This document shows, piece by piece, positions 3,474 through 27,152 of a DNA stretch of 64,000 bases. The stretch is from Deltaproteobacteria bacterium. GTDB lineage: Bacteria; Desulfobacterota; GWC2-55-46; UBA9637; GWC2-42-11. The position numbers and the translations under genes are program-made. Each line of letters opens with the position of its first letter. Within the stretch, counting starts at the first letter, position 1. A model generated the notes under the pieces. The model did no database searches. It saw nothing but the letters and a program-made list of their open reading frames with translations, and was not told the origin of the DNA. The stretch covers positions 2,666-66,665 of the forward strand of contig JACRNI010000011.1 of assembly GCA_016234925.1 (NCBI GenBank), given 5' to 3'.

Positions 3474-3485
3474 AACAAAAAAGCA

Positions 3486-3582
3486 AATCCTAATTTCTAA
3501 ATCCTAATTCCTAATGCTTTTATTTTAGAAATTTGACATTCGGATTTAGACATTATATTAGACATTAGGATTTAGGAATTAT
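3486..3582. repeat. Word-hairpin element (CCTAAT / ATTAGG words) between the two Ddl-like genes
   Basis: AATCCTAATTTCTAAATCCTAATTCCTAATG ... CATTAGGATTTAGGAATT. Confidence 0.5.
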
Positions 3583-3612
3583 TTTTACTTTCACGCCTTT
3601 CGTTTTTAGTTT

Positions 3613-4531
3613 TCAGATTGTTGTGTTCAACCCGTATCTCTTGCATGCAATATCCAAAACTGTATTTATAAGTTTATTATAATCCATGCCAGATGCCCTT
3701 GCTGCCTTTGGAAAACAGGAGTTATTCTTTGGGTCAGGGAGTATGCCCGGCAGGGGGTTGAGTTCCAGAATATAGGGGTTGCCGCTGGCATCCAGTCGGA
3801 CATCTATCCTGCACCAATCCTTTATATCCAGAACCTTAAATGTCTCTTTGCATACCGCCTCTATTTCATGCTTTAATGCCTTGTCTATTTTTGCCGGACA
3901 GACAAATATTTCCAGCGGATTATCAGGCGTGTCCCATATCCATTTTGCTTCATATGAATAGATAGGCTTGACACCTTCTGGCTTCATCTAAAACCCATTT
4001 GATTTTTTTATTCAGTTCTCCTTCATTATGAACAACAGAATCATTTCTTATGCCCTTGCTTGAGCCTTCATAAAGGGGTTTGACGATGAGAGGGAAATTG
4101 TAGCCCCCGACCTTTAGGTCGGGGGTGAGATGTGAGATGTGAGATGAAACTACAAAAAATCTTGCTGTGGGAATGCCGTAATATGACAGTATCTCTTTTG
4201 CCCTTGCCTTATCAAGGCATATGCCGAGTGTCAGAGGGTTAGAACCTGTGTATGGTATTTCAAGCATCTCTAATATCGCAGGAATATGCGATTCCCTGCT
4301 CCTGCCGTTAAGACCCTCCGCAATATTGAAAACAATATCAGGTTTTTCTATTTTAAGTTTTTGATACGCATCCTTGTCAGCCTCTATTAAAACAACTTCA
4401 TGTCTTTCTAAAATTGCTTTTTTTACAGCATCTATTGTCTCATCATCATCCCATTCAGCATAAAAATCCGGAGGGAGGTTCTCTGTTTCAATTTCTTTCT
4501 TTTTAATATTATATGTAATTGCGATTTTCAT
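3613..4531 (-). pseudogene. Second Ddl-like ATP-grasp ligase, split into two overlapping ORFs by a frameshift near 3950-3987. It also carries an in-frame hairpin-repeat insertion at 4103-4146.
   Basis: ORF 3950-4531 holds the N-terminal and central Ddl motifs (GSNPLTLGICLDKARAKEIL, PLIVKPLYEGSSKGI). ORF 3613-3987 holds the C-terminal ATP-grasp part (ILELNPLPGIL). Could be a real pseudogene or a sequencing frameshift. Confidence 0.5.
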
Positions 4532-4541
4532 TTTAGTAACA

Positions 4542-4692
4542 GATTACACAGATTATAAATTGCAGATTACGCAGAAATGTCATTGCGAGGCGAAGCCGAA
4601 GCAATCTCTTGGGATTGCCGCAGTCGCTTACGCTCCTTCGCAATGACAACAAGTTGTCATCTGTGTAATCGTTTTAAAAAATCTGTGTAATC
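4542..4692 (+). repeat. MITE-like family 3 copy (GATTACACAGAT termini, hairpin core)
   Basis: GATTACACAGATTATAAATTGCAGATTACGCAGA...GTCATTGCGAGGCGAAGCCGAAGCAATCTCTTGGGATTGCCGCAGTCGCTTACGCTCCTTCGCAATGAC...ATCTGTGTAATC x2. Confidence 0.65.
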
Positions 4693-4700
4693 ATTTTCAA

Positions 4701-5711
4701 TCATTTTGCAAGATTTTCTTTCACACACATGACAAGTTTTTTAATAACCCTGTCAACCACATCATCAGGGACTGCGTCGGGATATTGCGATTTCCGCCTC
4801 ATATCGCACATGTCATTTACATAATCAACAACAATGAATTTTCCGCTCTTTACCCCGTTAGAAGTTCCCCTCTCAGAGACACCTGTTTCTTTTATTTCTT
4901 TACTGCCTTTTAAAGATACACTTCTAACGGGGTTTATCTTTGCTATCTCTGTTGAAAAAAAATCCAGACAACATATATCGGCTATCCTTCTTGTTATATC
5001 TTCAAGTCCTTTCAGCCCGTAATGCTCCATTTCATGGCTAGTTACCCTGTGGTAGATATGCGTATCCGTATCCCACCAGCATGATATTACATCTCCGCAT
5101 ATATAAAAGACCCTGAACCATGCCATCCTGCTGTTCAAGCCTCTTCCAAAAACAACAGGTATGATTTTCTCCTGCAGCAGGTATTTGTCGTGGCTGATTT
5201 CCATCCGTGCCTTCACTATCTGGTGAATGGTTTTGGCATCAATAACAACACCTAGTCCGCCGCCTCCGCATGCAGGTTTTATTATGAACGGCATCCCAAG
5301 TTTTTTAAATCTTGAAATCTTCATCATAGTATGAAGTTTGGGATTATCTTTCCAAGGCGAGAGGATTATTGTATAAGGGACATTTATCCCATGTGTAAGA
5401 AACTCAAGGTGCATGGTTGCCTTGTCAACAGCCCTTGGCAAAAGGGAAACCTCGTTAATCATCTTAAAAGGCAGTTTTCTTGAATGATGCACCAGATTAT
5501 GAAACCTTGGATTTGTATCAGATGCGCGGTCAATGAACATCCTGAATGCAATCCTGCCTGCCTCTTGCAAACCAAGAGTTTCCTCAAGATTTGACGGATA
5601 GATTATATAACTGCTTACCCCGCTTTTTTGGCACTCTTTATCAAGGCTGTAAGCAAAATCCCTGTCATACTGCCATTCCCATGCAATGCCGAGGTCAAAA
5701 AATTGTGTCAT
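4701..5711 (-). CDS. ATP-grasp ligase with pre-ATP-grasp N-domain (RimK/GshB/GspS-like)
   Basis: 336 aa; FIIKPACGGGGLGV glycine-rich ATP-grasp loop; distinct from the two Ddl-like neighbours. Confidence 0.6.
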   Translation of the reverse strand: MTQFFDLGIAWEWQYDRDFAYSLDKECQKSGVSSYIIYPSNLEETLGLQEAGRIAFRMFIDRASDTNPRFHNLVHHSRKLPFKMINEVSLLPRAVDKATMHLEFLTHGINVPYTIILSPWKDNPKLHTMMKISRFKKLGMPFIIKPACGGGGLGVVIDAKTIHQIVKARMEISHDKYLLQEKIIPVVFGRGLNSRMAWFRVFYICGDVISCWWDTDTHIYHRVTSHEMEHYGLKGLEDITRRIADICCLDFFSTEIAKINPVRSVSLKGSKEIKETGVSERGTSNGVKSGKFIVVDYVNDMCDMRRKSQYPDAVPDDVVDRVIKKLVMCVKENLAK

Positions 5712-5728
5712 CGTTCATATTGGTAAAG

Positions 5729-5892
5729 TTGACGCTCAAAAATGTCTGGATGCTGGTAGCCGCAGGCTTTAGCCTGCGAAATAACGCAACCTAAAGGTTG
5801 CGGCTTTTTAGTATGTTGAGCGCAGAAGCCGAAGCGACAACGCCCGGGGCACCCATTGCAAAGCAATGGGTCGGGGCTTTTTGAGCGTCAAC
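5729..5892 (+). repeat. MITE-like family 1 copy with nested REP-like element (5755-5806) and GGGGCACCC hairpin (5843-5877)
   Basis: TIRs TTGACGCTCAAAAATG / CTTTTTGAGCGTCAAC; core GTATGTTGAGCGCAGAAGCCGAAGCGACAAC. Confidence 0.65.
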
Positions 5893-5895
5893 TTA

Positions 5896-6444
5896 TTATA
5901 AAATAAGGACTGCAGCAGCAATAACCGTCGTATATCTGCCGTCGCTCTTTACAATCGCTGACTGCGTTATATTGGTTGTCCTGACGATTTTATCGCTGAT
6001 TCTATAAATCTCTTTTTTCTCATCCCACCCTAGATTTGTGTCAAGTTCTATACCTAACGTTGACGCAAGCATTGCTGCGGCAAGGTCTTCTGCATAATCG
6101 CCTGCTATCTTGTCTGTCATGCCAAAGGCATGATGCTCGCTTAAGTAGCCATACTGTTTTTTATCCATTGGGATTGCACACCCTACAGATGCCGCCATCA
6201 GCCTTCTCGGCTCATTGCTGCAGCATCTTGACATGACGCAGAATGTCACCTGCCCAGGAGAAATCATTTTTAACCCTTGCGCCCTTGCAATAACCTTGCA
6301 CCCCGGCGGGAATATGCTGGATACTGTCACAATATTTAGTTTTTCAATGCCCGCATCTCTTAACGCCAATTCAAATGAATGCAGTTCTTCTTTATGAGTT
6401 CCTACACCCTTTGTGAAAAACACCCTTCTGGGAACCATGTTCAT
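5896..6444 (-). CDS. pdaD: Pyruvoyl-dependent arginine decarboxylase
   Basis: 182 aa; VTVSSIFPP matches the PdaD self-cleavage Ser-Ser site (IRISSIMPP in archaeal PdaD). Confidence 0.8.
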
Positions 6445-6463
6445 TTATCAAACCCTCCTTTTT

Positions 6464-6541
6464 CAGTGTCAGTGATTAGTGTCAGTATCAGTGAATGTTT
6501 TTTATCTTTATTACTGTCACTGACACTTCCACTCTTCACTG
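6464..6541. repeat. Word-hairpin element (GTCAGTGA words) between pdaD and agmatinase
   Basis: CAGTGTCAGTGATTAGTGTCAGTATCAGTGAATG-TTTTTTATCTTTATTA-CTGTCACTGACACTTCCACTCTTCACTG. Confidence 0.5.
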
Positions 6542-7528
6542 TTTCTTTACTATATATCCCATCATCTTGTAAACAAGTTTTGCAGACATAAAATCAGGCG
6601 CAACATTTCCGGGTATCGGGCATAATTCAACAACATCAAAACCAATTATATTTTTTTTGTTGGCAATAAATTTTAACAATTCAATAACATCATACCAGCC
6701 TAGTCCGCCCGGCTCAGGCGTTCCTGTTGCAGGCATAATTGACGGGTCAAACACATCAAGGTCAATTGTAACAAAAACATCATCTGTTAAATTATTGCAT
6801 ATATCCTTTGCAGGAATGTCGTTTATAATATCTTTTGCAAAATAGGTGGAGATACCGTGATGCGTTTTTCCTTGCCCCTTGACCCCCCACCCATCCGACC
6901 CATCCTTCGGATGGGTGCCCCGATGGGTACCCGCCCTTGACCCCTTCTTTAAAAACTCTGCTTCTTCAACAGATAAACTCCTTATGCCGACTTGAACAAT
7001 GGGACAAATTTCAGAAATCCTTCTCGCAATGCACGCATGATTATATGGGCTTTCCTGATAAACATCACGCATATCAGCATGCGCATCCATTTGCAAAACA
7101 GACATATTTGGATATTTTTTCTTTAATGCCTTAACAAGACCAAACGTTATGCTGTGTTCGCCGCCTAACATCACAGGTATTTTTTTGGCATTTATTATAT
7201 GCCTTGACGCATCATAAACAATGCCAGCCATCTCCTCTGGGCCTTTTGATGTCGGCTCAAGATAAGGGAGCGTATGTATACCAGCCTTGCATGCTTCTTT
7301 GTCCAATTCCTCGTCATACAGTTCCATATGCGTTGATGCATCTATGATTGCCCTAGGACCGTTTCGCGTTCCGCTTTGATAAGATGCAGTCATGTCATAC
7401 GGCACAGGCAGGACAACAAATCTGGCATTTTTAAATGATGATATTTTTGGCTGAAGACCGCCAAAGTTGTGCGGGATGCTGAATGGATAAGGAGGCATAT
7501 TATGTTTCGTTACCATCCCAACACCCAT
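6536..7528 (-). CDS. speB: Agmatinase (arginase/ureohydrolase family)
   Basis: 330 aa; metal-binding motifs VLQMDAHADMRD, DLDVFDPS, GFDVVELCP. Contains an in-frame GC-rich repeat insertion at 6871-6947. Confidence 0.8.
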   Translation of the reverse strand: MGVGMVTKHNMPPYPFSIPHNFGGLQPKISSFKNARFVVLPVPYDMTASYQSGTRNGPRAIIDASTHMELYDEELDKEACKAGIHTLPYLEPTSKGPEEMAGIVYDASRHIINAKKIPVMLGGEHSITFGLVKALKKKYPNMSVLQMDAHADMRDVYQESPYNHACIARRISEICPIVQVGIRSLSVEEAEFLKKGSRAGTHRGTHPKDGSDGWGVKGQGKTHHGISTYFAKDIINDIPAKDICNNLTDDVFVTIDLDVFDPSIMPATGTPEPGGLGWYDVIELLKFIANKKNIIGFDVVELCPIPGNVAPDFMSAKLVYKMMGYIVKKQ

Positions 7529-8499
7529 GCAAAAATCAGCGGGGCAACAATGCTTGCGTCTGATTCAATAATAAATTTAGGGGTATCTATCCCTAATTTG
7601 CCCCAAGTGATTTTTTCATTTGGAATAGCCCCGGAATATGAGCCGTAACTCGTGGTTGAATCTGATATTTGACAGAAGTATGACCAGAAAGGAACATCCT
7701 TCCAGCCTAAATCCTGATACATCATCGGCACAACGCAAATCGGAAAATCTCCGGCAATCCCGCCGCCGATTTGGAAAAAGCCCACGCCTTTTCCTCTGGA
7801 ATTTTTCTTATACCAGTCAGCAAGCCACACCATATATTCAATCCCTGATTTTACAGTAGAAGGTTTTAAATCTCCTTTTATGCAATAAGAGGCAAAAATA
7901 TTACCCATTGTAGAGTCTTCCCATCCGGGACAGACAATCGGCAGATTTTTCTCTGCTGCTGCAATCATCCAGCTGTTTTTTGGGTCTATCTCGTAATATT
8001 GCTCCATATCTTTTGAGAGAAGCATCTTATACATAAACTCATGAGGGAAATATCTCTCCCCCTTCCCTTCCGCAGTTTTCCATTGTTTGTAAATGCGCTT
8101 TTGTATCCTGCGGAATGCCTCCTCTTCAGGGATGCATGTGTCTGTCACACGGTTATACCCTTTCTCCATCAACTCCCATTCCTGCTGCGGGGTTAAATCT
8201 CTATAATTCGGAACGCGTTTATAATTCTTATGAGCGACCAGATTCATAATATCTTCTTCCAGATTAGCCCCTGTGCATGAGATGATATGCACCTTGTCCT
8301 GCCGTATCATTTCTGCTAATGAAATTCCAATCTCAGCAGTGCTCATGGCCCCGGCAAGCGTAATCATCATCTTGCCTTTTTTGCCGAGGTGCTTATCATA
8401 TGCCTTAGCAGCATCAACCAATGCTGCGGCGTTAAAATGCAGATAGTGCCTTTCTATAAATTGTGAAACAACGCCATTCTTCTTTGATTTTTTCTTCAT
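7510..8499 (-). CDS. Deoxyhypusine synthase family protein (DHS-like; possibly homospermidine-forming)
   Basis: 329 aa; NAD-binding DHS fold motifs ISCTGANLEEDI, FFQIGGGIAGDF; overlaps agmatinase start. Confidence 0.7.
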   Translation of the reverse strand: MKKKSKKNGVVSQFIERHYLHFNAAALVDAAKAYDKHLGKKGKMMITLAGAMSTAEIGISLAEMIRQDKVHIISCTGANLEEDIMNLVAHKNYKRVPNYRDLTPQQEWELMEKGYNRVTDTCIPEEEAFRRIQKRIYKQWKTAEGKGERYFPHEFMYKMLLSKDMEQYYEIDPKNSWMIAAAEKNLPIVCPGWEDSTMGNIFASYCIKGDLKPSTVKSGIEYMVWLADWYKKNSRGKGVGFFQIGGGIAGDFPICVVPMMYQDLGWKDVPFWSYFCQISDSTTSYGSYSGAIPNEKITWGKLGIDTPKFIIESDASIVAPLIFAWVLGW

Positions 8500-9155
8500 A
8501 ATCTGTAAACCCCTTTAAATCTTTCCATATGATTCTTATAGCCTGCAACCACCCTGTTTGCAAAATCAAGAGAGACTTCTTCATCAGCATCCATCATGTC
8601 TCTGACATATGTGGGCCCGAAATTATACGCAGCAAGCGCCAGTTCTGTTTTATCAAACTTATCTTTAAGGACATTAAAATAATAAAGTCCAATCCTCACA
8701 TTCATATACGGGTCAAGAAGCGTATGTTCCCCATTCCAATCTATGTTTAAGTCGCTTGCAATATCTTTGCCAACATATTCTCTGATTTGCATGAGACCCA
8801 TTGCCCCCCTGTCAGACCTTGCCCAGTTAAAAAATGAACTCTCTTTTTCTATAAGCGCCAGGACAAACATCGGGTCCAAATTATACTTACTGCTCTCATC
8901 AATTATCACCTGAGCAAGTTTAAGTTCCTCTCCTCTGGATAAGCCTGTCTTATAATTTCTGATGGTGTCAAGGACATAGTTGTCCTCCGCCGTCTGCTCA
9001 TCAAACACAATTTTAGGCACAACTTTCTGTCCAATATCGGTTCTTCTCAATTCCGCATCTGCGGAAACGACAGCCGCAATTACAAACACAAGCAGTATGG
9101 CTAATCCCTGCTTAAAGCATACAGGGACAAGTATATTTTTAACATTGAAATTCAC
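8496..9155 (-). CDS. Lytic murein transglycosylase (SLT domain) with signal/TM anchor
   Basis: 219 aa; SLT catalytic motif ESSFFNWARSDRGAMGLMQI; N-terminal hydrophobic segment. Confidence 0.8.
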   Translation of the reverse strand: MNFNVKNILVPVCFKQGLAILLVFVIAAVVSADAELRRTDIGQKVVPKIVFDEQTAEDNYVLDTIRNYKTGLSRGEELKLAQVIIDESSKYNLDPMFVLALIEKESSFFNWARSDRGAMGLMQIREYVGKDIASDLNIDWNGEHTLLDPYMNVRIGLYYFNVLKDKFDKTELALAAYNFGPTYVRDMMDADEEVSLDFANRVVAGYKNHMERFKGVYRL

Positions 9156-9183
9156 AGCATTCTCCCTTAAAATCTTTTCTGGA

Positions 9184-9411
9184 TTTTGAGCGTAATATTA
9201 TATTCAATTTGCAAGGTTTAAGTCAAGGATTAAGGCGATTGTAGTCTGCCGATTTATCGGCGTTTTTAAACTTGTCCCTGTATGCTTTAAGCAGGGATAC
9301 GCTCAATAAATTGAGCAACTACAAGTATGTTGAGCGCAGAAGCCGCTATGTTATGAGATTCCTCGCTTCGCTCGGAACAGGCTCCGCAGATGGGCATTTT
9401 CCAGCGTGAAC
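9184..9411 (+). repeat. MITE-like family 1 copy (degenerate/composite)
   Basis: Contains the family core GTATGTTGAGCGCAGAAGCCGC and right terminus GCAGATGGGCATTTTCCAGCGTGAAC. Confidence 0.5.
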
Positions 9412-9570
9412 TAATACAAACGCATTAAATTCAGTTACATCATACGAACGCAAGAAATGGTTTTAGACAAGGCGGACGACGAGGAAAACCGCAGGCATAC
9501 TAATTGGTATGTTGAGGATTTTCCGAGGAGTCCAACGCAGTATAAAGACATTTATTGCGTTCGTATTAGA

Positions 9571-10728
9571 TTACCCTTTCATTGCCTCTATCAAAACCCT
9601 TGCAACCTCTGGTCTTGAAAACTCAACAGGCGGGATCTGTCCTGCCTTTAACATTTCCCTTACCTTTGTGCCGGATAAGGCAATATGGTGGCTGGAATCA
9701 TGCGGGCAGCTCTTGTAAGATGCCATGCTCTCGCATTTTTTGCAGTAGAATGTATGGTCAAAAAAGAGCGGTGTTATGCCGATTTCCTGAGGGTCAAACT
9801 CGTCAAATATATAATGAGCGTCAAATGAGCCGTAATAATTGCCGACCCCTGCATGGTCCCTGCCAACAATAAAATGCGTGCAGCCGTAGTTTTTTCTTAT
9901 GAGCGCATGGAATATCGCCTCTTTCGGGCCTGCATATCTCATTGCCGCTGGAAGCACAACAAGGGCAGTCCTGTCCTTTGGATAATAGTTTTCAAGCAAA
10001 ACTTCGTAACACTTCATCCTCACATCAGCAGGTATGTCATCGCCCTTTGTCTCGCCTACAATCGGATGGATCATAAGCCCGTCAACTACCTCCAATGCGC
10101 ATTTCTGAATGTATTCATGCGCCCTGTGTATCGGATTTCTTGTCTGAAAACCAACGACCCTTTTCCAGCCTTTTTCTTTGAAAAGATGCCTTGTCTCTTT
10201 AGGGTCAAGCCTGTATTTTTTAAAGTCCTCCTGCTTTACCCTGTGTATGACTGACACCTTGCCTCCAAGAAGCATGTCCCCCATTTCAAAAACCTTTGCA
10301 ACACCCGGATGCGCCGTGTCCTTTGTGCCGTAGACCTGAACAGCCTCTTTTTCTTTGTCATGGCTATGCTTTTCTTCAATGTGAAGAACTGCTAAAATCT
10401 CGCCCTGTTTATTGACAAGGCTTACTTCCTCGCCTTGTTTTAGATTCTTTGCCTCGTCTTTTGTAACTGATAAAGTAACTGGTATTGTCCAAGGAAGACC
10501 ATTTGACAGTTTCATATTGTCCATGACGTTGTGATAATCATCCTTTTTCATAAACCCTTCGAGAGGACTGAATGCGCCTATTGCAATCATCTCAAGGTCA
10601 GACACCTCTCTGTCATTGAGATGCACCTTCTTTAGTTTTTTTGTCTTTTCTAAAAGTGCTTCCCTTTCCTTTCCTTCCAAAATCCTGTTTACAAGTTTGC
10701 CGCCATGCGGCTCGATTAAACCTAGCAT
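9571..10728 (-). CDS. sat: Sulfate adenylyltransferase (ATP sulfurylase)
   Basis: 385 aa; [11 protein letters not shown] and GRDHAGVG motifs. Confidence 0.9.
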
Positions 10729-10759
10729 TATTTATGCCTCCTTTTTTGAATACAGGTAG

Positions 10760-10813
10760 AGGTATAGGTAAAGTAAAAGATATTTTCCTCTACCTATACC
10801 TGTTTTACTTATG
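10760..10813. repeat. Word-hairpin intercistronic element (arms built of GGTAGAGGTATAGGTA words around an A/T loop)
   Basis: ACAGGTAGAGGTATAGGTA ... CCTCTACCTATACCTGT imperfect inverted repeat between sat and cysH. Confidence 0.5.
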
Positions 10814-11521
10814 TATCCCGCACTCCTTCTTTTCATCCTCTTTATTAAACCACCGCCACCTGCCTGAGCGGGGCGGTTCGCCTTTAACAAGAGGCGTTGA
10901 GCATATTATGCAGCCGATAGAGTCATAGCCCATATCAAAGAGTTTATTATACGGCAAATCATTTTCCTTTATATATTGCCAGATTTTTGCCATATCCCAG
11001 TCAGCAAGAGGATTTATTTTTAAGATTTTTCTGTTTTCTTCATCAATAATCTCTGCCTTTGGAACAGTTTTTCTATAATCTGACTGGTCTCTTCTAAGTC
11101 CTGTTATCCAAACATCAAGTGTTTTGAGCGCGCGTTTATTCGGTTCAACCTTTCTAACAAAACAGCAGTATTCCTGCTTTGCCTTGTCCATAAAAAAGAG
11201 ATACTCGCCGAATCTTTCAATCATATTCTTTAATGCGTTCTCATCAGGAAAATATCTTTCAACAGTCAAAACATATTTTTCTTCTGTATTATTGATTGCC
11301 TCATATGTCTCTGGATGAAGGCGAAGCGTGTCAATTGTAAAGCCCCTGAACTTTTTTGCACACCTGCTGGCAATATCAATAATCACAGTCCCTGTTAATT
11401 GAAAACTTGTGCCTATCGCGCACCTTTCACCAAACTCATCAAATGCCCATTTAATGAGTTCTTCTGCAGGCATTGCATTTAATTTTTTAAGTGTATCTTT
11501 TGTAATATCTTCAATCTTCAT
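10805..11521 (-). CDS. cysH: Assimilatory APS/PAPS reductase, Fe-S type (CysH family)
   Basis: 238 aa; PAPS-reductase fold plus cysteine pairs EYCCFVRKV and C-terminal KECGIH typical of 4Fe-4S APS reductases. Confidence 0.85.
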   Translation of the reverse strand: MKIEDITKDTLKKLNAMPAEELIKWAFDEFGERCAIGTSFQLTGTVIIDIASRCAKKFRGFTIDTLRLHPETYEAINNTEEKYVLTVERYFPDENALKNMIERFGEYLFFMDKAKQEYCCFVRKVEPNKRALKTLDVWITGLRRDQSDYRKTVPKAEIIDEENRKILKINPLADWDMAKIWQYIKENDLPYNKLFDMGYDSIGCIICSTPLVKGEPPRSGRWRWFNKEDEKKECGIHK

Positions 11522-11527
11522 AGTTAA

Positions 11528-12640: not shown

Positions 12641-12648
12641 TATTACCT

Positions 12649-13260: not shown

Positions 13261-13302
13261 TCATCCCCCTTTTTAATTTCATTTCACTCACAAGTTTGCA
13301 CA

Positions 13303-13502
13303 GTTCACGCTCAAAAATTGCCCAGATGCAAGGCGGAGCAAGGTTTCAAGCGAGGCATACTTTTGTAGTATGTTGAGCGAAGAAGCCGCAGCGACAACAT
13401 GCACAGCGAGCGTTAGCGAGCGAATAGTAATGCATTATCCCTTACATGAGAGCATCCCGCAGGGATGCTCAACGCCGCAGATGGGCATTTTTCAGCGTGA
13501 AC
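13303..13502 (+). repeat. MITE-like family 1 copy
   Basis: Terminal inverted repeats GTTCACGCTCAAAAAT / ATTTTTCAGCGTGAAC; conserved core GTATGTTGAGCGAAGAAGCCGCAGCGACAAC. Confidence 0.7.
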
Positions 13503-13505
13503 ATC

Positions 13506-13994
13506 TTATTCCTCAAACACCTCAATCTTGCAAGATGCCCTTTCAACCAGTTCATCAACTATTGATTTTGAAAAATATTTTAAAAATACTGAACGTTTTC
13601 TTTTTATTGCCACTGCTGTATCAATCTTGTATCTTTCAATCACATCAAGAGACTTTTCAACAAAATCGCCCTGTGTTGTAACTGCGTCAAAATCAACATT
13701 CTCTTCCATTGCCCTGATTTGAACCTTGCCCATCTCCTCATAGCCGCGCTGCCGATACTCCTTCATTATAGCCTCTGTGAGTTGGGTTGAAGGCTTGTCG
13801 CCGATAAAACCTATGTCTGTAAATTTATCAAAAATCTCCTGAGTAAGTTCAGTCTCAATTATATAAAGGACAACGAGTTTTGCCTTTTCCTTTTTTGCAA
13901 GATTAACAGCATATTCAATTGCATCCTGCGATGTCCTTGATGTTGACAAAATTAAAAGTATATTTTTCATATCTTTATCCCCAAAATAGGCCAA
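13506..13994 (-). CDS. Universal stress protein-like (adenine nucleotide alpha-hydrolase fold)
   Basis: 162 aa; alternating hydrophobic beta-strand pattern NILLILSTS...KLVVLYII typical of UspA, but weak. Confidence 0.45.
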   Translation of the reverse strand: MAYFGDKDMKNILLILSTSRTSQDAIEYAVNLAKKEKAKLVVLYIIETELTQEIFDKFTDIGFIGDKPSTQLTEAIMKEYRQRGYEEMGKVQIRAMEENVDFDAVTTQGDFVEKSLDVIERYKIDTAVAIKRKRSVFLKYFSKSIVDELVERASCKIEVFEE

Positions 13995-15394
13995 TAAACT
14001 TTAGCCATAATATTGAAAACTATCCATGCGGTTATCATCATCACAATCCCTGCCTTTGCCATATCTCTTGCTGTAATATATCCAGATGAAACTGCTATTG
14101 CATTTGCAGGCGTTGACATTGGAAAACAAAATGCCAGACCTGCCGGAATTGCTATGGCATATGTAATAATCTGCGGGTCAAGATTAAATCTGCCTGCCAT
14201 GCCTATGCTGACAGGAAGCAAAATTGCTATAACAGCGGCATTGCTCATCCCCTCTGTTAAAAGGATTGTTAAAAGGGAAAATACCGCTATAACAAGAACA
14301 GGGCTGTTTGCCCAATCACCAATCACTGTATTTGCAAGCCATGCTGCTGCGCCTGATTTTTCCATTGCCGCGCCTAACGTTATAGCGCCGCCATACATAA
14401 GTATTATGCCCCAGTTGACATATTCCTCTATGTCTTTCCATCGGACAAGTTTTAATACGAATAATGCAACAACTGCGATGATTGCAATATTTGCAATACC
14501 TGCCATTCTGCTAAACAAAAGCCATGAAGATATGGTTATGAGCATCAAAATGCCGACAGCATATTCAGTATAACCCATCTTGCCAAGCCCTTTTATCTTT
14601 CTTGCAAACACATCTTTTGCAAGATGTATGTCCTGTATATCCTGCGGAAAAAATCTTGTAAGGCCGATGTAGCCTATAAAAAGCAGAATTACTACTGTTG
14701 GAAACACAACCATTGTGTATTCAAAAAAACCAATGGTTATACCTGTCGCCTCCTTGAGCATGCCAGCAGCAAGCGGAACCCTTGCGCCGCCCAAAAATGT
14801 CGCAACACCTCCGATTACACAGCCCCATGCAAGCGCGAGAAAAAGCGACTTTGCATAGTTTGACTTACCGGGTTTCAGATTCAAGCCCTTTGCAATCTCA
14901 AGCACTATCGGGAAAAGCATTGCGGCAACTGCATGTTCTGACATAAAAAACGACAAAACCGCTGCAAGTAAAAATATTGACGCAAGAAGTCCCTTCGGCG
15001 TATTCCCAAACCTATCCATTATTAGAACTGCAATCCGGCTCGCCAATCCTGAATGCATAACAGCAGCAGAAAGTATGAATGCGCCGAGTATAAAAAATAC
15101 TGCCTCATTTCCAAAGAGCGCATATGCCGCCTTTTTATCCATAACACCCAATAAAGGCACCATCACAATCGCCATAAGGCTTGTAATTGCAAGAGGCAGG
15201 GCATCTGTTACCCAGAGTATAAGACATACAACAAAAAGCGCCAATGCCCTCTGCCCTTGAATTGTAAGCCCGGAAGGTGTAGGGATATTTATGAGATACC
15301 AGAATATAAAACCAAGGGCTAAAAAAAATATGGGTCTTAATGACCTTACTAAAACTATTACCCAAATTGGTCTTCTGTCTATGATTACCTTCAT
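13967..15394 (-). CDS. Anion permease of the ArsB/NhaD/DASS superfamily, putative sulfate/anion transporter
   Basis: 475 aa, about 12-14 predicted TM helices, internal duplicated halves; sulfate-assimilation context. Confidence 0.6.
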   Translation of the reverse strand: MKVIIDRRPIWVIVLVRSLRPIFFLALGFIFWYLINIPTPSGLTIQGQRALALFVVCLILWVTDALPLAITSLMAIVMVPLLGVMDKKAAYALFGNEAVFFILGAFILSAAVMHSGLASRIAVLIMDRFGNTPKGLLASIFLLAAVLSFFMSEHAVAAMLFPIVLEIAKGLNLKPGKSNYAKSLFLALAWGCVIGGVATFLGGARVPLAAGMLKEATGITIGFFEYTMVVFPTVVILLFIGYIGLTRFFPQDIQDIHLAKDVFARKIKGLGKMGYTEYAVGILMLITISSWLLFSRMAGIANIAIIAVVALFVLKLVRWKDIEEYVNWGIILMYGGAITLGAAMEKSGAAAWLANTVIGDWANSPVLVIAVFSLLTILLTEGMSNAAVIAILLPVSIGMAGRFNLDPQIITYAIAIPAGLAFCFPMSTPANAIAVSSGYITARDMAKAGIVMMITAWIVFNIMAKVYWPILGIKI

Positions 15395-15397
15395 AAA

Positions 15398-16621
15398 TTA
15401 TCCCTCACCTACCTCCCTGACCCTCAATTTCCTCCGCAAAGTAGAAAGCCCCCAAACTGTCTTCAGTCCAAGTTTTGACTTGTAAAACTTATGCATCATT
15501 GTTTTGAATCTTGACATATCCCCTGTAAAAAACATCGCCTCAATGGGCGTTGTTATAACGCTGATGTCTCTCACCCAGTTCATGTTTATCCTGTTCTTTT
15601 TAACAGCATGATATAGATGCTTGTAAACAGGGGCAATCTCATCAAGAGAAGGTATTTTATATGAAAGAAGTTTCACGCTGCTCACGGGTCTATAAATCGG
15701 AAGTATAGGCACAACGCCAAGGTCTGTAAGAAAATCTATCCCCCTCATTGTTGATTCTGCCGGCTCAAGCCCGACAATAAGATTAGATGCGACAGTGCCG
15801 TTTGGAAAAACCTTTGCAGCATATTTAAGCGCATTTATATATCTGTTTCTGCCAATCAGTTCATCCCTCCCCGGGCATATCTCCTTAAAAAGTTTTTCAT
15901 CAAATATCTCCATATTGTAAAGCACAGAATCAGCGCCAACCGCATATGTTTCGTCTATAAACTTGTTCTCCTTTGGCGGAAGCGCCTCAACAGCAACAAT
16001 GGTGTTAAAATGTTTCTTGATTGCCTTTATATAAGGCTTTAAAAATTCTATGCCGCCGTCAGGCGTTTCTGAAAAACCAATTGAAAGATAGACAATCTCT
16101 GCCTTGCCTTCTTTGTATGCAGCCTCAACAGTTTCAAGAACCTCCTCAACACTATAAACTACACCGCCCTTTGAATTAAAATTCCCTGCACAGTATCTGC
16201 ACTCTATATTCATGTTGAAAAACTCGCACCTTGTGTCAGGCGTGATTGCAACATAACTGCCGTGCATATTGCCGATTTTTGAAAGCGGAATGCCTGTCGT
16301 TGTTTTCAGTTTATAAAAATCAGGTTTTGGTATGATTTTGACCTTAACAGATTCCCCCTCTCTTTTTATGAATGCCTTTCCATCTTTCTGGATAAGTTCA
16401 TAAGGAGAATTCTTTGCAAAATCCTCAAGAAAAGGCGCATTTACCCATGTCTTATAAGGCAATATTATGTCAAGCCCGCCTGTAATGCCTGTATAGCCTG
16501 TAGAAAGGTCTATGCCCAGACTCTTAACAGCGTTTTCATTAAGCCTTATACCGCAAAGCATAAGGTCTATCTTTAAATAACCGGGGTTGTGGAGATATGT
16601 CTTTGTTTTTTTCATAAACAA
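15398..16621 (-). CDS. Radical-SAM-like TIM-barrel protein with non-canonical Cys triad (C-x8-C-x2-C), function unknown
   Basis: 407 aa; CEFFNMNIECRYCAG in place of CxxxCxxC, followed by a radical-SAM-like downstream pattern (GKAEIVYLSIGFSETPDGG ... ASNLIVGLEPAES). Start abuts the ThiF stop (16621/16622). Confidence 0.55.
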   Translation of the reverse strand: MFMKKTKTYLHNPGYLKIDLMLCGIRLNENAVKSLGIDLSTGYTGITGGLDIILPYKTWVNAPFLEDFAKNSPYELIQKDGKAFIKREGESVKVKIIPKPDFYKLKTTTGIPLSKIGNMHGSYVAITPDTRCEFFNMNIECRYCAGNFNSKGGVVYSVEEVLETVEAAYKEGKAEIVYLSIGFSETPDGGIEFLKPYIKAIKKHFNTIVAVEALPPKENKFIDETYAVGADSVLYNMEIFDEKLFKEICPGRDELIGRNRYINALKYAAKVFPNGTVASNLIVGLEPAESTMRGIDFLTDLGVVPILPIYRPVSSVKLLSYKIPSLDEIAPVYKHLYHAVKKNRINMNWVRDISVITTPIEAMFFTGDMSRFKTMMHKFYKSKLGLKTVWGLSTLRRKLRVREVGEG

Positions 16622-17443
16622 TCATGTGCTGCATTTTGCAGCCTGTATCTCGCAAGCCTGCTCATACATAACCAAATCCTTTACTGTCGGATTATCTCCG
16701 CATAATGCACACTGGGTATCCCTTCTTACCTTTACTTTCCTGAATGTCATGGCAAGCGCATCAAATATAAGAAGATGTCCTGCGAGTTCATCACCTATTT
16801 TTAGAATCTGTTTTATTGCTTCTACTGCCTGAATAACGCCGATTACACCAGCGAGCGCTCCTAAAACACCTGCCTCCTGACAACTTGGCACAAGCCCTTT
16901 TGGAGGAGGCTCTGGATAAAGGCATCTGTAGCAGGGCTTTCCTTCATGCGGCTTGAATATTGTCACCTGTCCGTCAAACCTGAACATACTGCCTGACACA
17001 AGGGTCTTTTTTTCAAAAAAACATGCATCATTCATTAAATACCGCGTTGGAAAATTATCGCTGCCGTCAAGGATAACATCATAGTCTCTTATAATCTTTC
17101 TTATATTATCAATGCCAAGACGCTCGTTATAGACAATAACCTTGACATCAGGATTCAAGCCTTCAATAGATTTTTTAGCAGATTCTACCTTTGGCATCCC
17201 AATCTTTTCAGTAGAGTGAATTATCTGCCTTTGAAGGTTAGATAAGTCAACACAGTCAGCATCGGCAATGCCGATTGTGCCTATACCTGCAGCAGCAAGA
17301 TAATAAAGCGCCGGCGAACCAAGCCCGCCTGCGCCAAGCACAAACACCTTTGCGTCTAATAATTTAGCCTGACCCTTGCCGCCGACCTCAGGAAGAATTA
17401 TATGCCTTGAATATCGCTCTATTTGTTCTTCTGTAAAGTTCAT
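16622..17443 (-). CDS. ThiF/MoeB/MoeZ-type E1-like sulfur-carrier adenylyltransferase
   Basis: 273 aa; nucleotide-binding VLGAGGLGSPALYYLAAAGIGTIGIAD and zinc CxxC pairs CYRC ... CALC. Confidence 0.85.
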   Translation of the reverse strand: MNFTEEQIERYSRHIILPEVGGKGQAKLLDAKVFVLGAGGLGSPALYYLAAAGIGTIGIADADCVDLSNLQRQIIHSTEKIGMPKVESAKKSIEGLNPDVKVIVYNERLGIDNIRKIIRDYDVILDGSDNFPTRYLMNDACFFEKKTLVSGSMFRFDGQVTIFKPHEGKPCYRCLYPEPPPKGLVPSCQEAGVLGALAGVIGVIQAVEAIKQILKIGDELAGHLLIFDALAMTFRKVKVRRDTQCALCGDNPTVKDLVMYEQACEIQAAKCST

Positions 17444-17453
17444 AATTTAAATA

Positions 17454-17546
17454 CAGTTAAGGAGTTTAAGAGTTGTGGAGTTGAGGGATTTTTTTATTTT
17501 TAAGTTTTTAACTCCTAAACTCTTGAACTCTTCAACTCTTAAACTG
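17454..17546. repeat. Word-hairpin element (ACAGTTAAGGAGTT words), 3' flank of JAMM gene
   Basis: AATACAGTTAAGGAGTTTAAGAGTTGTGGAGTTGAGGG-ATTTTTTTATTTTT-AACTCCTAAACTCTTGAACTCTTCAACTCTTAAACTGTTTCT. Confidence 0.55.
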
Positions 17547-17946
17547 TTTCTATTTCCTCTTCCCTAAACGGCTCTCCTTCATTTTCAAATGTCCATGACT
17601 TCACTGAAACATCTTTTCCATTTTGCACAGCGACAATCACATATGAATAAAACGGCCATGCCCTTTGCCTGTCAAAATCAGATGGTCTGTCAGGATGGTC
17701 AGGATGGGAATGAAAAAAACCAATCACCTCAAAACCATCTTTTTTCGCCTCTTTTTCAACCCTTAATAAATCCTTTGGGTTTATCTCATACCTGTCATTC
17801 GCCCTTTCTTTATTTATATTCTCCAGAGGATAAATCTTTGTAATCTTTTTGTCCTTGCCAACCAATGCGCCGCAGCCCTCGCAAGGGTAGGATTTTTTTG
17901 CATGGCTGATGATTTCGTTGTAAATTTTCTGTGATAGATGTAACAT
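17539..17946 (-). CDS. JAMM/MPN+ metalloprotease (Mec+/CysO-cleaving-type)
   Basis: 135 aa; JAMM motif FHSHPDHPDRPSDFD (HxHx7SxxD) and upstream EGCG. Confidence 0.8.
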   Translation of the reverse strand: MLHLSQKIYNEIISHAKKSYPCEGCGALVGKDKKITKIYPLENINKERANDRYEINPKDLLRVEKEAKKDGFEVIGFFHSHPDHPDRPSDFDRQRAWPFYSYVIVAVQNGKDVSVKSWTFENEGEPFREEEIETV

Positions 17947-17953
17947 AAGAAAA

Positions 17954-18056
17954 TACAGTTAAAGAGTTCAGGAGTTCGAGAGTTAAGGAGTTAAAAAATA
18001 AAACTGTTTTTTACTCCTCAACTGTATTTGTATTTACTCCATAACTCCTGAACTGT
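17954..18056. repeat. Word-hairpin element, paralog of 17454-17546, 5' flank of JAMM gene
   Basis: AATACAGTTAAAGAGTTCAGGAGTTCGAGAGTTAAGGAGTT-AAAAAATAAAA-...ACTCCATAACTCCTGAACTGTTTCT; same termini as the other copy. Confidence 0.55.
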
Positions 18057-18060
18057 TTCT

Positions 18061-19059
18061 CTACTCCCACAACACAGTTGACAGATACCTGTCCCCGCCG
18101 TCAGGGAATATAACAACAATTACACCCTCTTCTAATTCCTTTGCAGCCTGAAGCGCACCCCACATTGCAGCGCCTGACGACTGCCCCACAAAAAGCCCTT
18201 CCTCCATTGCAAGCCTCTTTGCCATATCATATGATTCCTCTGTTGGCGCAGAAATCTTTTTATCAAGTTTATCTTCATGATATATGCCCGGGACAATGGA
18301 TGAAGGCATATGTTTTAAACCCTCAAGCCCATGCAGCGCTGTTGCTGGCTCAACTGCAATGATCTGTATGTCCGGATTGAACTCCTTTAATCTCCTGCCT
18401 GTTCCCATTATTGTCCCGCCTGTTCCTATGCCTGCGACAAGATGTGTTATCCTGCCGTCTGTCTGCTCTATAATCTCCACCCCTGTTGTGTCGTAATGCG
18501 CCTGCGGATTTGATGGATTATTATACTGGTCAAGTTTGCAGTATTTATCAGGACTGTCAACATACATCTTCCATGCAAGCCTTATTGCGCCGTCAGAGCC
18601 TTCCATTGGATTTGAATAAACCGTGTTTGCGCCGAAAGCCTTTAAAATCTTTTTTCTTTCATTGCTGACATTTTGCGGAACAACAAGTTCAACCTGATAA
18701 CCCTTAACAGCGCCAATCCATGCATATGCAATGCCTGTGTTGCCGGATGTTGAGTCAAGTATAATCTTGTCCTTTGTAAGCCTTCCTGCCTCTTCTGCAT
18801 CCTTTATCATCTTTAGCGCTGCTCTATCTTTAACAGAGCCTCCCGGATTATAAGATTCAATCTTCGCATAAATCTCGACACCTTTGCTTAAACCCTGTGC
18901 AATCCTATTTATTTTAACCAGAGGGGTATTGCCTACAAGTTCCAAAACAGAGGTCTTTGGCAATTTATAACCCCAGTTTATGATTTGTTTTAGATTATTC
19001 ATATTAAACCTTTCCGAGTAATGTAGTATATATCTTTGCTCCAAAAATGGTAGCCGCAA
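18061..19059 (-). CDS. cysM: Cysteine synthase B-like PLP enzyme (CysM-type, likely sulfur-carrier dependent)
   Basis: 332 aa; PLP lysine region GSVKDRAAL, glycine loop [20 protein letters not shown] as called probably starts too far upstream. Confidence 0.8.
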   Translation of the reverse strand: MRLPFLEQRYILHYSERFNMNNLKQIINWGYKLPKTSVLELVGNTPLVKINRIAQGLSKGVEIYAKIESYNPGGSVKDRAALKMIKDAEEAGRLTKDKIILDSTSGNTGIAYAWIGAVKGYQVELVVPQNVSNERKKILKAFGANTVYSNPMEGSDGAIRLAWKMYVDSPDKYCKLDQYNNPSNPQAHYDTTGVEIIEQTDGRITHLVAGIGTGGTIMGTGRRLKEFNPDIQIIAVEPATALHGLEGLKHMPSSIVPGIYHEDKLDKKISAPTEESYDMAKRLAMEEGLFVGQSSGAAMWGALQAAKELEEGVIVVIFPDGGDRYLSTVLWE

Positions 19060-19102
19060 CCTTTAGGTTGCGTTACCTACGCAGGCTAAAACCTGCGGCT
19101 AC
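19050..19102. repeat. REP-like two-hairpin element (GTAGCCG outer stem enclosing two hairpins)
   Basis: GTAGCCGCAACCTTTAGGTTGCGTTACCTACGCAGGCTAAAACCTGCGGCTAC; overlaps and supplies the last codons of cysK. Confidence 0.65.
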
Positions 19103-20011
19103 CGAATTTTCATGCACCCTTTCGCATGTATCAGGCAAAATAACCACAATAAGTTTCCCTTTGGAATCAGTTCTTTTTGCAATATCCAGCGCAGCAAAAA
19201 CTGCTGCGCCTGATGATATACCGCAGAGAATGCCCTCTTCCTTTATCATCCTTTTTGTCATATTTAATGCATCCTCATCTGAAACCTGCATCACCTCATC
19301 TATAATAGATATATTAAGTATTTGAGGCACAAATCCAGCGCCTATGCCGGAAATCTTATGCGCCCCTGCCTGACCGCCTGAAAGAACAGGAGATTTTTTT
19401 GGTTCAACTGCAATCGCCTTAAAACACGGCTTTCTCTTTTTAATAACCTCTCCAATACCTGTGATTGTGCCTCCTGTTCCAATACCTGCCACCAAAATAT
19501 CAACCTTTCCGTCAGTATCATTCCAGATTTCCTCTGCTGTAGTCCTTTTGTGAATATCAGGATTTGCAGGATTCTTAAACTGCTGAGGTATATATGAATT
19601 TGAAACCTTTTTTGAAATTTCCTCTGCCTTCAAAATAGCGCCCTTCATGCCTTCTGACGCAGGTGTCAAAACAACCTCTGCGCCAAACATCTTAAGAAGA
19701 GAGAGCCTTTCAATGTCAACAGTTTCAGGCATTGTAAGAATCAACTTATAACCTCTTGCAGCGCAAACAAATGCAAGCGCAATGCCTGTATTTCCTGATG
19801 TCGGCTCAATAATCGTTGTATTATTATTTATTAACCCTGCCCTCTCGCCTGCCTCAATCATACTTACAGCAATCCTGTCTTTGACGCTGTTTAAAGGATT
19901 AAATGACTCCAGTTTTGCGGCAACCTCCGCCTTTATACCCTTTGTCACCCTGTTCAATCTGACAAGCGGTGTATTGCCTATTGTCTCTGTGATGTCGTTA
20001 AATATCCGCAT
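19073..20011 (-). CDS. cysK: Cysteine synthase A (O-acetylserine sulfhydrylase)
   Basis: 312 aa; SVKDRIA PLP-lysine motif, [17 protein letters not shown]-terminal 13 residues are encoded by the REP-like element. Confidence 0.85.
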
Positions 20012-20018
20012 CTGAAAA

Positions 20019-20100
20019 TAGGGTTCAAGGATTCTAGTGGTCTAGGGTTCGAGTGAAAAAATAAACACTTGAACCCTTGAATCCTCTACCCCTTGACTCC
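20019..20100. repeat. Word-hairpin element (GGTTCAAGG words) between NIL gene and cysK
   Basis: GGGTTCAAGGATTCTAGTGGTCTAGGGTTCGAGTG-AAAAAATAAACA-CTTGAACCCTTGAATCCTCTACCCCTTGACTCC. Confidence 0.5.
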
Positions 20101-20227
20101 TTAAAATCACTACAACTATCCTGATAACAAACCATATTTCTATAATACTTTATCTAATATATCAACAAATACCCAACGCCTGCAAATATTTCTTTACAAT
20201 AAAGATAAAGAAATATTTCAAAAAATT

Positions 20228-23343: not shown

Positions 23344-23395
23344 GTAGCCGCAACCTTTAGGTTGCGTTATTTCGCAGGCTAAAGCCTGCGGCTAC
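23344..23395. repeat. REP-like two-hairpin element in the 5' leader of the thrC-like gene
   Basis: GTAGCCGCAACCTTTAGGTTGCGTTATTTCGCAGGCTAAAGCCTGCGGCTAC. Confidence 0.65.
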
Positions 23396-23470: not shown

Positions 23471-23475
23471 CCTAA

Positions 23476-27097: not shown

Positions 27098-27152
27098 TAG
27101 GCAGCCGCAGGCTTTAGCCTGCGAAATAACGCAACCTAAAGGTTGCGGCTAC
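27098..27152. repeat. REP-like two-hairpin element (opposite orientation)
   Basis: GTAGGCAGCCGCAGGCTTTAGCCTGCGAAATAACGCAACCTAAAGGTTGCGGCTAC. Confidence 0.65.

Follow-up and report, generated by a model that had tools for sequence, protein, structure and literature searches.

A 64,000-nt stretch of DNA from a groundwater Deltaproteobacteria bacterium (assembly GCA_016234925.1, contig JACRNI010000011.1, positions 2,666 to 66,665; hereafter the window) contains seven short imperfect palindromes, here called word hairpins, in which an arm of tandem repeat units (words) is followed by a loop with an A/T run and by a complementary arm. At a probability of roughly 0.55, we regard the word hairpins as DNA-level, self-renewing inverted pairs of 6–8-nt tandem repeats that form a lineage-specific superfamily of small palindromes. 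We infer that replication slippage would add or remove whole words within an arm, while templating of one arm on the other, by quasi-palindrome correction or template switching, would maintain the complementarity and spread a changed word. Entire hairpins would in addition be copied to other junctions, neighboring ones included, through ectopic conversion or a hairpin-specific transposition without target duplication. They would persist in short intercistronic spacers and at the extreme 3’ ends of genes, where an insert does little harm: the arm often provides a stop codon, and the self-folding insert would keep the upstream stop physically near the downstream start. Stop-free words would be tolerated in frame in permissive protein loops. 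In a polycistronic mRNA, each element would form a stem-loop of 17–47 bp, for which the most likely effect would be punctuation of the transcript, as a barrier to 3’ exonucleases and/or as an RNase III target, rather than termination. The comparisons described below support the DNA-level dynamics.

The first-pass annotation, made from the sequence alone, had listed six intergenic elements and one copy inside a miniature inverted-repeat transposable element (MITE). All seven are present at the same coordinates or a few bases off (3484–3584, 6464–6541, 10755–10806, 17453–17547, 17955–18056 and 20020–20101, and, within the MITE, 26144–26208). Their build, from tandem-word arm through A/T-run loop to complementary arm, also agrees with that description in the words and the loops, and lies far above chance. 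Two tests compared the elements with shuffled sequence. First, when the elements were folded as coding-strand RNA and compared with 200 dinucleotide shuffles each, all seven gave a single long imperfect stem-loop with a minimum free energy (MFE) of −21 to −36 kcal/mol, better than every shuffle (0/200), and with z-scores of −4.4, −6.6, −4.9, −5.2, −7.2, −3.8 and −6.7 in coordinate order. Second, a word detector, which requires three or more copies of a 5-mer in one arm and two or more of its reverse complement in the opposite arm, gave 7 matches in the window versus 0.5 in dinucleotide shuffles, although the elements at 20019 and 26140 were missed by this stricter run. A slightly relaxed version gave 8 matches versus 0.0 in local 200-nt block shuffles, at least three of the eight being outside the hairpin family (a palindrome in a pyrK-like gene, a hairpin with GATTAC words, and a probably spurious intragenic match at 26658). 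The word-based detector was used instead of ungapped and strict gapped hairpin finders, which missed the bulged elements. A sliding 100-nt MFE across the window was rejected as a detector, since GC-rich coding regions fold equally well and the profile did not discriminate.

Tandem Repeats Finder reported periods of 6, 7, 8 and 14 in the arms of five window elements, with copy numbers of 2.6 to 5.0 at the 6–8-nt periods; it reported nothing for the arms of the element at 10760, in which the word repeat is visible in the sequence. Arms built head-to-tail from short units are likewise present in the hairpins of relatives. In the window, an inverted-repeat finder placed arms of 19–29 nt with 79–89% complementarity. 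The predicted stems have 17–47 pairs (median 26), are AU-rich and bulged, and carry loops of up to ~25 nt. The description of the first arm as purine-rich holds for 27 of 34 curated hairpins and fails for the element at 3486, the single pyrimidine-first case. Roughly AAACAG...CTGTATT end sequences are common to ~13 of the 34 (counted by eye), and the layout on the coding strand is often (A)AAACAG-arm-loop-arm-CTGTATTT, then ATG. The recurrent part of these ends, CAG(G/T)...(A/C)CTG, is only 3–5 nt, and the element is wholly an inverted repeat with termini indistinguishable from the arms. An Rfam scan of the window matched no word hairpin, its sole match being a riboswitch for S-adenosylmethionine (SAM).

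Gain, loss and copying among relatives

For comparison, six loci of relatives came from a scan with the protein of a JAB deubiquitinase-like gene that flanks two window elements (one genome per species) and three from a metagenome scan; L010, a closer relative with 91% ThiF identity, was found through homologues of the adjoining ThiF/MoeB-like gene. Look-ups for exact matches to the window's own JAB and ThiF proteins returned no record. L004 and L007 are one organism (100% identity), so the ten loci represent nine relatives, all of them uncultured groundwater ‘Deltaproteobacteria’/Thermodesulfobacteriota with a GC content of 40–46%. Word hairpins occur in all ten loci except the short L007 fragment, and the word detector gave 29 matches in 165 kb of this clade versus 0.4 in shuffles. 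Three more distant relatives (L011–L013; ThiF 77–80% identical; GC 48–63%) share the operon and its gene order, with ordinary spacers and terminators, and the detector found 1 match in 61 kb there versus 0.4 expected. Therefore, the word hairpins are restricted to one clade.

Within this clade, the hairpins are polymorphic for insertion and absence. In L001 and in L004/L007, JAB ends and ThiF begins in one overlapping ATGA, and the spacer between the PALP enzyme gene and JAB is 1 nt in L001 and L002. In L002, which has 94% protein identity to L001, a 55-nt hairpin (word AAGAGTCA) is inserted 8 codons before the old JAB stop; a new stop, TAG, lies within its arm, and a remnant of the old JAB tail is recognizable after the hairpin. 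The placement of the elements at gene junctions inside operons, as described from the window, is supported; in the hairpin-free relatives, the same gene pairs overlap as ATGA or lie 1 nt apart.

The first-pass annotation had proposed that the architecture rather than the sequence is conserved. This stands inside the window only, where six or more distinct units are found in 23 kb (and still others in relatives). Across the relatives it does not hold, as a limited set of recurrent sequence families, including AGGTTGAGGTTAAGG, GGCAATAGGC/GGTGATAGG, AGACT/AGAGT, CCGTGA and AATCCTAAT, appears at orthologous and non-orthologous junctions of different genomes. We measured the likeness of hairpins as the fraction of shared 6-mers, together with alignments. 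At orthologous junctions, the fraction was 0.90 for L001_6557 and L003_11365, 0.71 for L003_15527 and L004_9264, and 0.38 for L006_2040 and L010_9362. Such homologues differ by whole words; the first pair differs by about one word (CACCCAT, ~7 nt) as judged by eye, and the second by a 9-nt alignment gap corresponding to a whole-word insertion or deletion (indel). At non-orthologous junctions, L003_15527 and L005_9902 shared 0.71, L003_16320 and L010_10808 0.73, L005_235 and L006_2530 0.49, and the window element at 3486 and L006 3449–3583 0.51, and the likeness of such homologues ends at the hairpin boundaries. Neighbors in one genome are also alike, with 0.70 for the two JAB-flanking copies of L003 and 0.41 for the window elements at 17454 and 17954. 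Meanwhile, the JAB/ThiF hairpins of L005 and L006 are unrelated despite 91% protein identity, and the L006 hairpin matches an L005 copy located ~10 kb from that junction. At last, the window element 26144–26208 is nested in the core of the MITE copy 26106–26236, between convergent genes, and the other two copies of this MITE (28088–28169 and 55584–55716) have no word hairpin in a three-copy alignment. The likeness at orthologous, non-orthologous and neighboring sites, the L005/L006 case and the nesting in the MITE together indicate that hairpins are inherited vertically with slippage and are also copied or replaced from site to site.

The same observations could be read as the traces of miniature transposable elements, MITE-like or similar to repetitive extragenic palindromic (REP) sequences, that are mobilized in trans by a transposase reading the hairpin and its CAG...CTG ends. 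We consider this unlikely. An IS200/IS605-type or RAYT-type single-strand enzyme would be the candidate, leaving no target duplication and possibly excising precisely, with which the ancestral ATGA overlap at the empty sites would fit. Presence/absence polymorphism, clean boundaries, homologous copies at non-orthologous sites whose likeness stops at the hairpin ends, the copy nested in another MITE and the end motif of ~13 of the 34 hairpins (by eye) are all in line with transposition, and GTAG-tagged REP doublets in the window place REP-type biology in this genome. However, no transposase, RAYT gene or Y1-transposase domain was found among the 30 window proteins scanned. No target-site duplication was found when the filled L002 site was compared with the empty L001 site, nor where the non-orthologous homologues end, and no TA target, as used by IS630-type MITEs, was found at those sites. 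Word hairpins thus share presence/absence polymorphism and multiple dispersed homologous copies with MITEs, without the target-site duplication. Moreover, the sequences are unlike conserved REP or MITE families, with six words in a span of 23 kb; the tandem-word arms and whole-word indels suggest that slippage, and not just transposition, has acted; and non-palindromic arrays of the same words exist.

Probable DNA-level origin and possible RNA roles

Pairing between the arms is of the simple Watson-Crick type and symmetric, as expected from an origin at the DNA level. Among 29 curated hairpins, the better-folding strand is the sense strand in 15 and the antisense strand in 14 (Wilcoxon p = 0.87), the G-U pairs number 43 and 50, and both orientations relative to transcription are seen for A-run and for T-run loops. 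This comparison gave no indication of selection on the coding-strand RNA.

The main rival is a selected RNA role, which we hold to be possible though clearly less probable than the DNA-level origin, and which is kept alive because the JAB junctions are occupied repeatedly and the hairpins cluster in one operon. The hairpins would then be devices of operon mRNAs, serving the differential stability or processing of cistrons, or translational coupling through a looped-out spacer that brings the upstream stop codon, together with a ribosome-binding site if the upstream tail contains one, beside the downstream start; any change of words that preserves the pairing would be allowed. Six of the seven window elements lie between co-directional genes, the local genes being on the minus strand, as do all curated hairpins of the relatives, a sample biased to one operon. 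The position relative to stop and start codons agrees with a selected RNA role: by manual count, 30 of 33 intercistronic hairpins begin at the upstream stop or within 8 nt of it, and the start codon follows 1–25 nt past the stem. The upstream stop often lies within the first word, so that a ribosome terminating there would melt the bottom of the stem. Both JAB-flanking junctions are filled in most genomes of the clade, at a near-identical nucleotide and with different words, and the empty-site junctions are ATGA overlaps, that is, translationally coupled. The median of 26 stem pairs would suffice for RNase III, by a criterion of at least ~20 bp that yields a prediction only, and similar roles have been suggested for the cyanobacterial hairpins of short tandemly repeated repetitive (STRR) sequences (PMC2670836).

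Against a selected RNA device stand the missing sense bias in fold energy and G-U pairs, the close relatives without a hairpin, the copy in a MITE between convergent genes, and the occurrence of the same words as non-hairpin arrays in coding sequence. In addition, replacement accounts better than compensatory drift for the full change of words between L005 and L006 at 91% protein identity. We rejected a loss of ribosome-binding sites behind hairpins as a signature: the motif is not significantly rarer there, at 24% versus 30% for other genes (p = 0.65, with starts taken from the longest open reading frames (ORFs)). We also rejected an ‘all-frame stop module’ as the defining property, the enrichment being only mild, with stops in all three frames in the 5’ arm of 11 of 34 hairpins (6.0 expected) and in the 3’ arm of 8 (2.7 expected).

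Several observations weigh against a DNA-level origin as the whole explanation. First, neither a mobilizing enzyme, nor a target-site duplication, nor a defined terminal repeat was found in the window and at the compared hairpin sites. Second, six to eight of the compared genomes carry a hairpin at nearly the same nucleotide at both JAB-flanking junctions, with differing words; this would take an exceptionally hot site of insertion or else retention over a long time, and retention would suggest that the structure is selected. Third, Watson-Crick stems fold alike on both strands, and the absent asymmetry is therefore compatible with an RNA role. Fourth, the first 27 kb of the window contain every element and the other 37 kb none, although co-directional gaps of 50 nt or more number at least a dozen between 27 and 64 kb. 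Under uniform placement, such clustering would have a probability of roughly (27/64)^7, or ~0.002; it points to local spread or operon-specific retention. Fifth, the same operon is populated in all relatives, which could mean function instead of neutrality.

A further reading would join both levels. The hairpins would be structure-defined mobile palindromes that target ATGA overlaps and 3’ tails and are kept by a coupling-preserving ‘hairpin shunt’ over 55–135 nt, with arms evolving in concert via slippage and templating. We find this doubtful. If true, the folded stem would hold the terminating ribosome beside the downstream start, the lineage would provide a natural system that mechanically links a selfish DNA element to operon translation, and an undiscovered hairpin-specific copying machinery would be implied.

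Termination, or attenuation, possibly bidirectional, as a way of partitioning operons is improbable. A U-tract does follow the stem in the window element at 3486 (TTTTTT), in L004_9264 (T7) and in L003_15527 and L003_16320 (T6), and an A-rich 5’ flank, which would give a U-tract for antisense transcription, is found in 15 of 34 hairpins. However, only 7 of 34 have five or more T residues in the 8 sense-strand nucleotides that follow the stem, and a terminator scan flags none of the elements. The stems are long, AU-rich and bulged with large loops, whereas ordinary short GC-rich terminators occur elsewhere in the window. The next start codon, 1–25 nt downstream, leaves no room for a promoter, and the same gene pairs overlap in relatives. 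The possibility raised by the first-pass annotation itself, that the elements are merely rho-independent terminators, is thus contradicted by the scarcity of U-tracts, the terminator scan and the position inside operons.

Relation to described repeats

The first-pass annotation could place the hairpins in no described family. This was too strong, as the heptamer pairs of Xanthomonas (PMC4692102) and the STRR hairpins of cyanobacteria (PMC2670836) are closely alike. In Xanthomonas, GGGAATC heptamer arrays form 70–75 convergent pairs per genome that are capable of stem-loop formation, lie preferentially between aligned ORFs and differ in unit number between species; Nostoc has GGGGA(C/T)T arrays (Rehm et al. 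2015, PMC4692102). Word hairpins resemble these arrays in their head-to-tail, purine-rich units of ~7 nt with a nearby inverted second array that allows a stem-loop or cruciform. With the Xanthomonas arrays they further share an intergenic preference between aligned ORFs, near stop codons, and a unit number that varies among related genomes, the repeat type being usually preserved; their purine-first order equals the ‘convergent’ polarity of the Xanthomonas pairs. The words AGGGATT, AGGAATT and AGGATTT are close to GGGAATC and GGGGATT. In contrast, one unit dominates in Xanthomonas and Nostoc, whereas at least six unrelated-looking units occur within 23 kb here; the periods here are 6, 7 and 8; and the host belongs to an uncultured low-GC ‘Deltaproteobacteria’/Thermodesulfobacteriota lineage. 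Copying between junctions and insertion into ATGA-coupled junctions, as seen here, go beyond what is described for those arrays. Because no one or few fixed units dominate, we take the word hairpins to be a variant, not a plain member, of the inverted heptamer-class pairs.

Most units here also lack G-quadruplex potential, unlike those of Xanthomonas and Nostoc, with tracts of three or four G residues only at 120–153 and partly in 26144–26208. This bears on the reading of the arms as iteron-like sites for a word-reading DNA- or RNA-binding protein, or as G-quadruplex repeats of the kind proposed for GGGNATC arrays, which is very unlikely. The arms are indeed arrays of similar units, and G-runs occur in 26144–26208 and in (GGGGTCAA)x4 at 120–153, the latter satisfying the four-tract rule (PMC4692102). 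However, the words are too different for one protein, most of them (GAGTT, AGGTA, CAGTGA, AGACT, CCGTGA) have no G-runs, and the defining trait is the complementarity of the arms, not a common word.

Between hupS and hupL of filamentous cyanobacteria, 7-bp STRR units form a hairpin, and roles in transcript stability, translational coupling and pausing or termination have been suggested (PMC2670836). Word hairpins share with it the tandem ~7-bp units that form a hairpin between co-transcribed genes. They belong to another phylum, and STRR units are a few fixed heptamers; gain and loss, copying and in-frame coding insertions are not documented for STRR hairpins in the text consulted. TAACTGA direct repeats, known from marine Beggiatoaceae, some Cyanobacteria and Bacteroidetes, are intergenic tandem heptamers that end a few nucleotides from start codons, overlap in some cases the end of the upstream ORF, and contain stop codons in the forward orientation (MacGregor 2015, PMC4679880). 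Unlike the word hairpins, these sets are direct, have no predicted structure, and include only one reported inverted case (PMC4679880). Tandem TAACTGA is absent from the window, and the heptamer was rejected as a general word, as it is found in tandem only in L009. There, the hairpin upstream of JAB (4405–4468) has (TAACTGA)x3–4 as its 3’ arm, ending at GATG; in L005, AACTGATAACTGAT (~10505–10520), which contains TAACTGA one base short, lies directly before an ATG. The TAACTGA heptamer is thereby seen in a further lineage.

REP sequences and their doublets (REPINs) are short intergenic imperfect palindromes of conserved sequence with a GTAG or CGTC tag (PMC3733652, PMC3116915). Like them, word hairpins are often situated between co-transcribed genes, have a proposed mRNA-stabilizing role, and are non-autonomous and variably present. 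Unlike them, they have no conserved 20–40-nt sequence, only sub-families being shared, and no GTAG/CGTC tag. Long stem-loops between cistrons that process a transcript or protect its upstream segment are also known as individually conserved functional sites, such as the RNase III or stabilizer hairpins of phage T7 early mRNA, the Escherichia coli malE-malF REP and the Rhodobacter puf operon. The word hairpins differ from these in being families of tandem-repeat palindromes, and a processing role for them is a prediction. Rickettsia palindromic elements (RPEs) are conserved palindromes of ~100–150 bp that are inserted in frame and translated. In-frame words in the pyrK-like gene of the window are translated as well; unlike RPEs, they are short and mostly non-palindromic arrays.

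Hairpins of short tandem repeats have been known in cyanobacteria and later in Xanthomonas without an accepted function or origin. The present lineage is unusually informative: many word families occur per genome, filled and empty sites of one operon can be set side by side in about a dozen relatives, an ATGA-coupled junction shows a recent insertion, copies have demonstrably moved between junctions, and words are translated in a protein. The origin and spread of such repeats, and the role of a long stem-loop between coupled cistrons, thereby become directly testable. In practice, the elements will break assemblies and mislead gene callers, and in metagenome-assembled genomes of this kind stops supplied by repeats, ORFs running into arms and low-complexity protein insertions are to be expected.

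Individual elements and neighboring sequences

Five of the window hairpins lie between adjacent co-directional cluster genes, one lies in a gap between NIL-domain and CysK-like genes, and one lies in the MITE core. The six intergenic elements are given on the minus strand. The first, 3484–3584, is pyrimidine-first, with the word AATCCTA/AATTCCT at period 7, and is situated between a ddl-like fragment (3613–3987) and a ddl-like ATP-grasp gene (2436–3473). Its arms (3491–3515 and 3557–3581) are 88% complementary, Tandem Repeats Finder gives periods 7 and 14, and the fold reaches −22.1 kcal/mol (z −4.44). It is the sole window element with a clear sense-strand U-tract after the stem (TGCTTTTTTGTTATG).

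The element 6464–6541 (word (T)CAGTGA; −31.5 kcal/mol, z −6.58) is found in a polyamine cluster, which according to Pfam holds agmatinase, pyruvoyl arginine decarboxylase and a deoxyhypusine-synthase-like gene. It separates the agmatinase-family gene (6536–7528) from the pyruvoyl arginine decarboxylase gene (5896–6444); its first word contains the upstream stop TGA, and a canonical GGAGG ribosome-binding site follows the stem. In 10755–10806, between the PAPS-reductase gene (10805–11521) and the ATP-sulfurylase gene (9571–10728), the word is AGGTA+N at period 6, the stem base is ACAGG...CCTGT, AAGGAGG follows the stem, and the fold is −21.1 kcal/mol (z −4.88).

The two JAB-flanking elements, 500 nt apart, belong to one word class. 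The element 17453–17547, with the word AAGAGTT+N at period 8 (−27 kcal/mol, z −5.23), lies between the JAB deubiquitinase-like gene (17539–17946), whose stop TAA is held in its first word, and the ThiF/MoeB-like gene (16622–17443), whose ATG is 9 nt past the stem. The element 17955–18056, with the word (C/A)AGGAGTT at period 8 (−36.2 kcal/mol, z −7.15), lies between the PALP enzyme gene (18061–19059) and the JAB gene, the JAB ATG being 8 nt past the stem. Further upstream in the operon, 20020–20101 (word AGGGTTCA/AGGATTCT, period 8; −31.4 kcal/mol, z −3.76) is located in the 216-nt gap between the NIL-domain gene (20228–20464) and the CysK-like gene (19073–20011), and ends a few nucleotides upstream of the CysK-like ATG. 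The same gap contains, upstream of the hairpin, a perfect 13-bp AT-rich palindrome (AAATATTTCTTTA caataaaga TAAAGAAATATTT; 20184–20218) that may be an operator or a terminator; in L010, a canonical terminator is present in the equivalent gap.

These genes are part of a long sulfur-assimilation cluster in the order threonine-synthase-like PALP, sulfite reductase, TusA, ThiS, NIL, CysK-like, PALP, JAB and ThiF/MoeB, which continues to PAPS reductase and ATP sulfurylase. The SAM riboswitch (RF00162, 80 bits; 23475–23596, minus strand) precedes the first gene of this cluster, the threonine-synthase-like PALP gene, so the run of genes rich in hairpins may be transcribed as a single unit under SAM control.

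The MITE-internal element 26144–26208, to which no strand is assigned, has the word AGGGATT/AGGGTTT at period 7 and the ends CAGG...CCTGTATTC, and folds at −33.3 kcal/mol (z −6.69). The surrounding MITE has the ends (TA)TACAGAGCGTCATAAC...GTTCTGACGCTCTGTA(TG), conserved flanking parts of ~30–50 nt and a core that is different in each copy; its CAG...CTG-TA ends are similar to those of many word hairpins.

Words of the same kind are also found as repeats within a gene, at three places that the first-pass annotation had omitted (120–153, 301–342 and 512–558). They lie in frame, on the minus strand, in an open frame at 1–741 that runs off the window start and encodes a pyrK-like product (1ep1_B, E = 4e-19), a homologue of the electron-transfer subunit of dihydroorotate dehydrogenase. 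The repeat at 120–153, a direct array with 4.2 copies of GGGGTCAA and no hairpin, encodes GSRGQGVKGSN, an 11-residue insertion relative to Lactococcus PyrK. At 301–342, 5.9 copies of CTTGCAA form an 18-bp near-perfect palindrome that encodes MQVASCKMQVATCK and aligns gap-free to a poorly conserved helix. At 512–558, direct copies of GGGTTCAAGG, which is the word of hairpin 20020–20101, give ...RVQG...GSRVQG. At these three hot spots, the pyrK-like homologues of the clade (254–330 aa) carry low-complexity insertions that vary, and one homologue has the 7-residue tandem SRVRGQG x3. These in-frame words fit a general mutational or insertional process filtered by selection.

Other repeat families are abundant in the window. 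First, GTAG-tagged REP-like doublets occur at 5756–5807, 19050–19102, 23344–23395 and 27101–27152, and also at 28302–28365 and ~35900. Each consists of a 23-nt palindrome (GTAGCCGCA[AC/GG]CTTTAGG[TT/CC]GCG) placed head-to-head with a variant copy, as in REPINs, and the palindrome has 8 matches in the window versus 0 in shuffles. The CysK-like and PALP genes are separated by one of the doublets, and another doublet is nested in a different MITE. Second, a MITE-like family with the ends TTCACGCTCAAAAAT...ATTTTTCAGCGTGAA and variable GC-rich cores is found at 5729–5891, 13304–13501, 28256–28448 and 36402–36523 (and 9396–9410). Two of its copies contain nested REP-like palindromes, and the copy 28256–28448 explains a spurious ORF at 28192–28452. 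Third, a GATTAC(A/G)CAGAT hairpin element (4542–4692, 23748–23830 and 25487–25657; L004 8538–8643; L006 9038–9199) has two copies of the 12-nt word per arm, ~22 nt apart, around a variable core. It has the same build of a repeated word in each arm on a larger scale; unlike the words of the word hairpins, its word is conserved across genomes.

Next to the element 3484–3584, the minus-strand ORFs 3613–3987 and 3950–4531 overlap and correspond to the C-terminal and the N-terminal (start) parts of an ATP-grasp domain of D-Ala-D-Ala-ligase type; they are apparently a single gene that a frameshift, or an error in sequencing, has split. Within this split gene, a (GTGAGAT)x3 array is located at 4125–4146.

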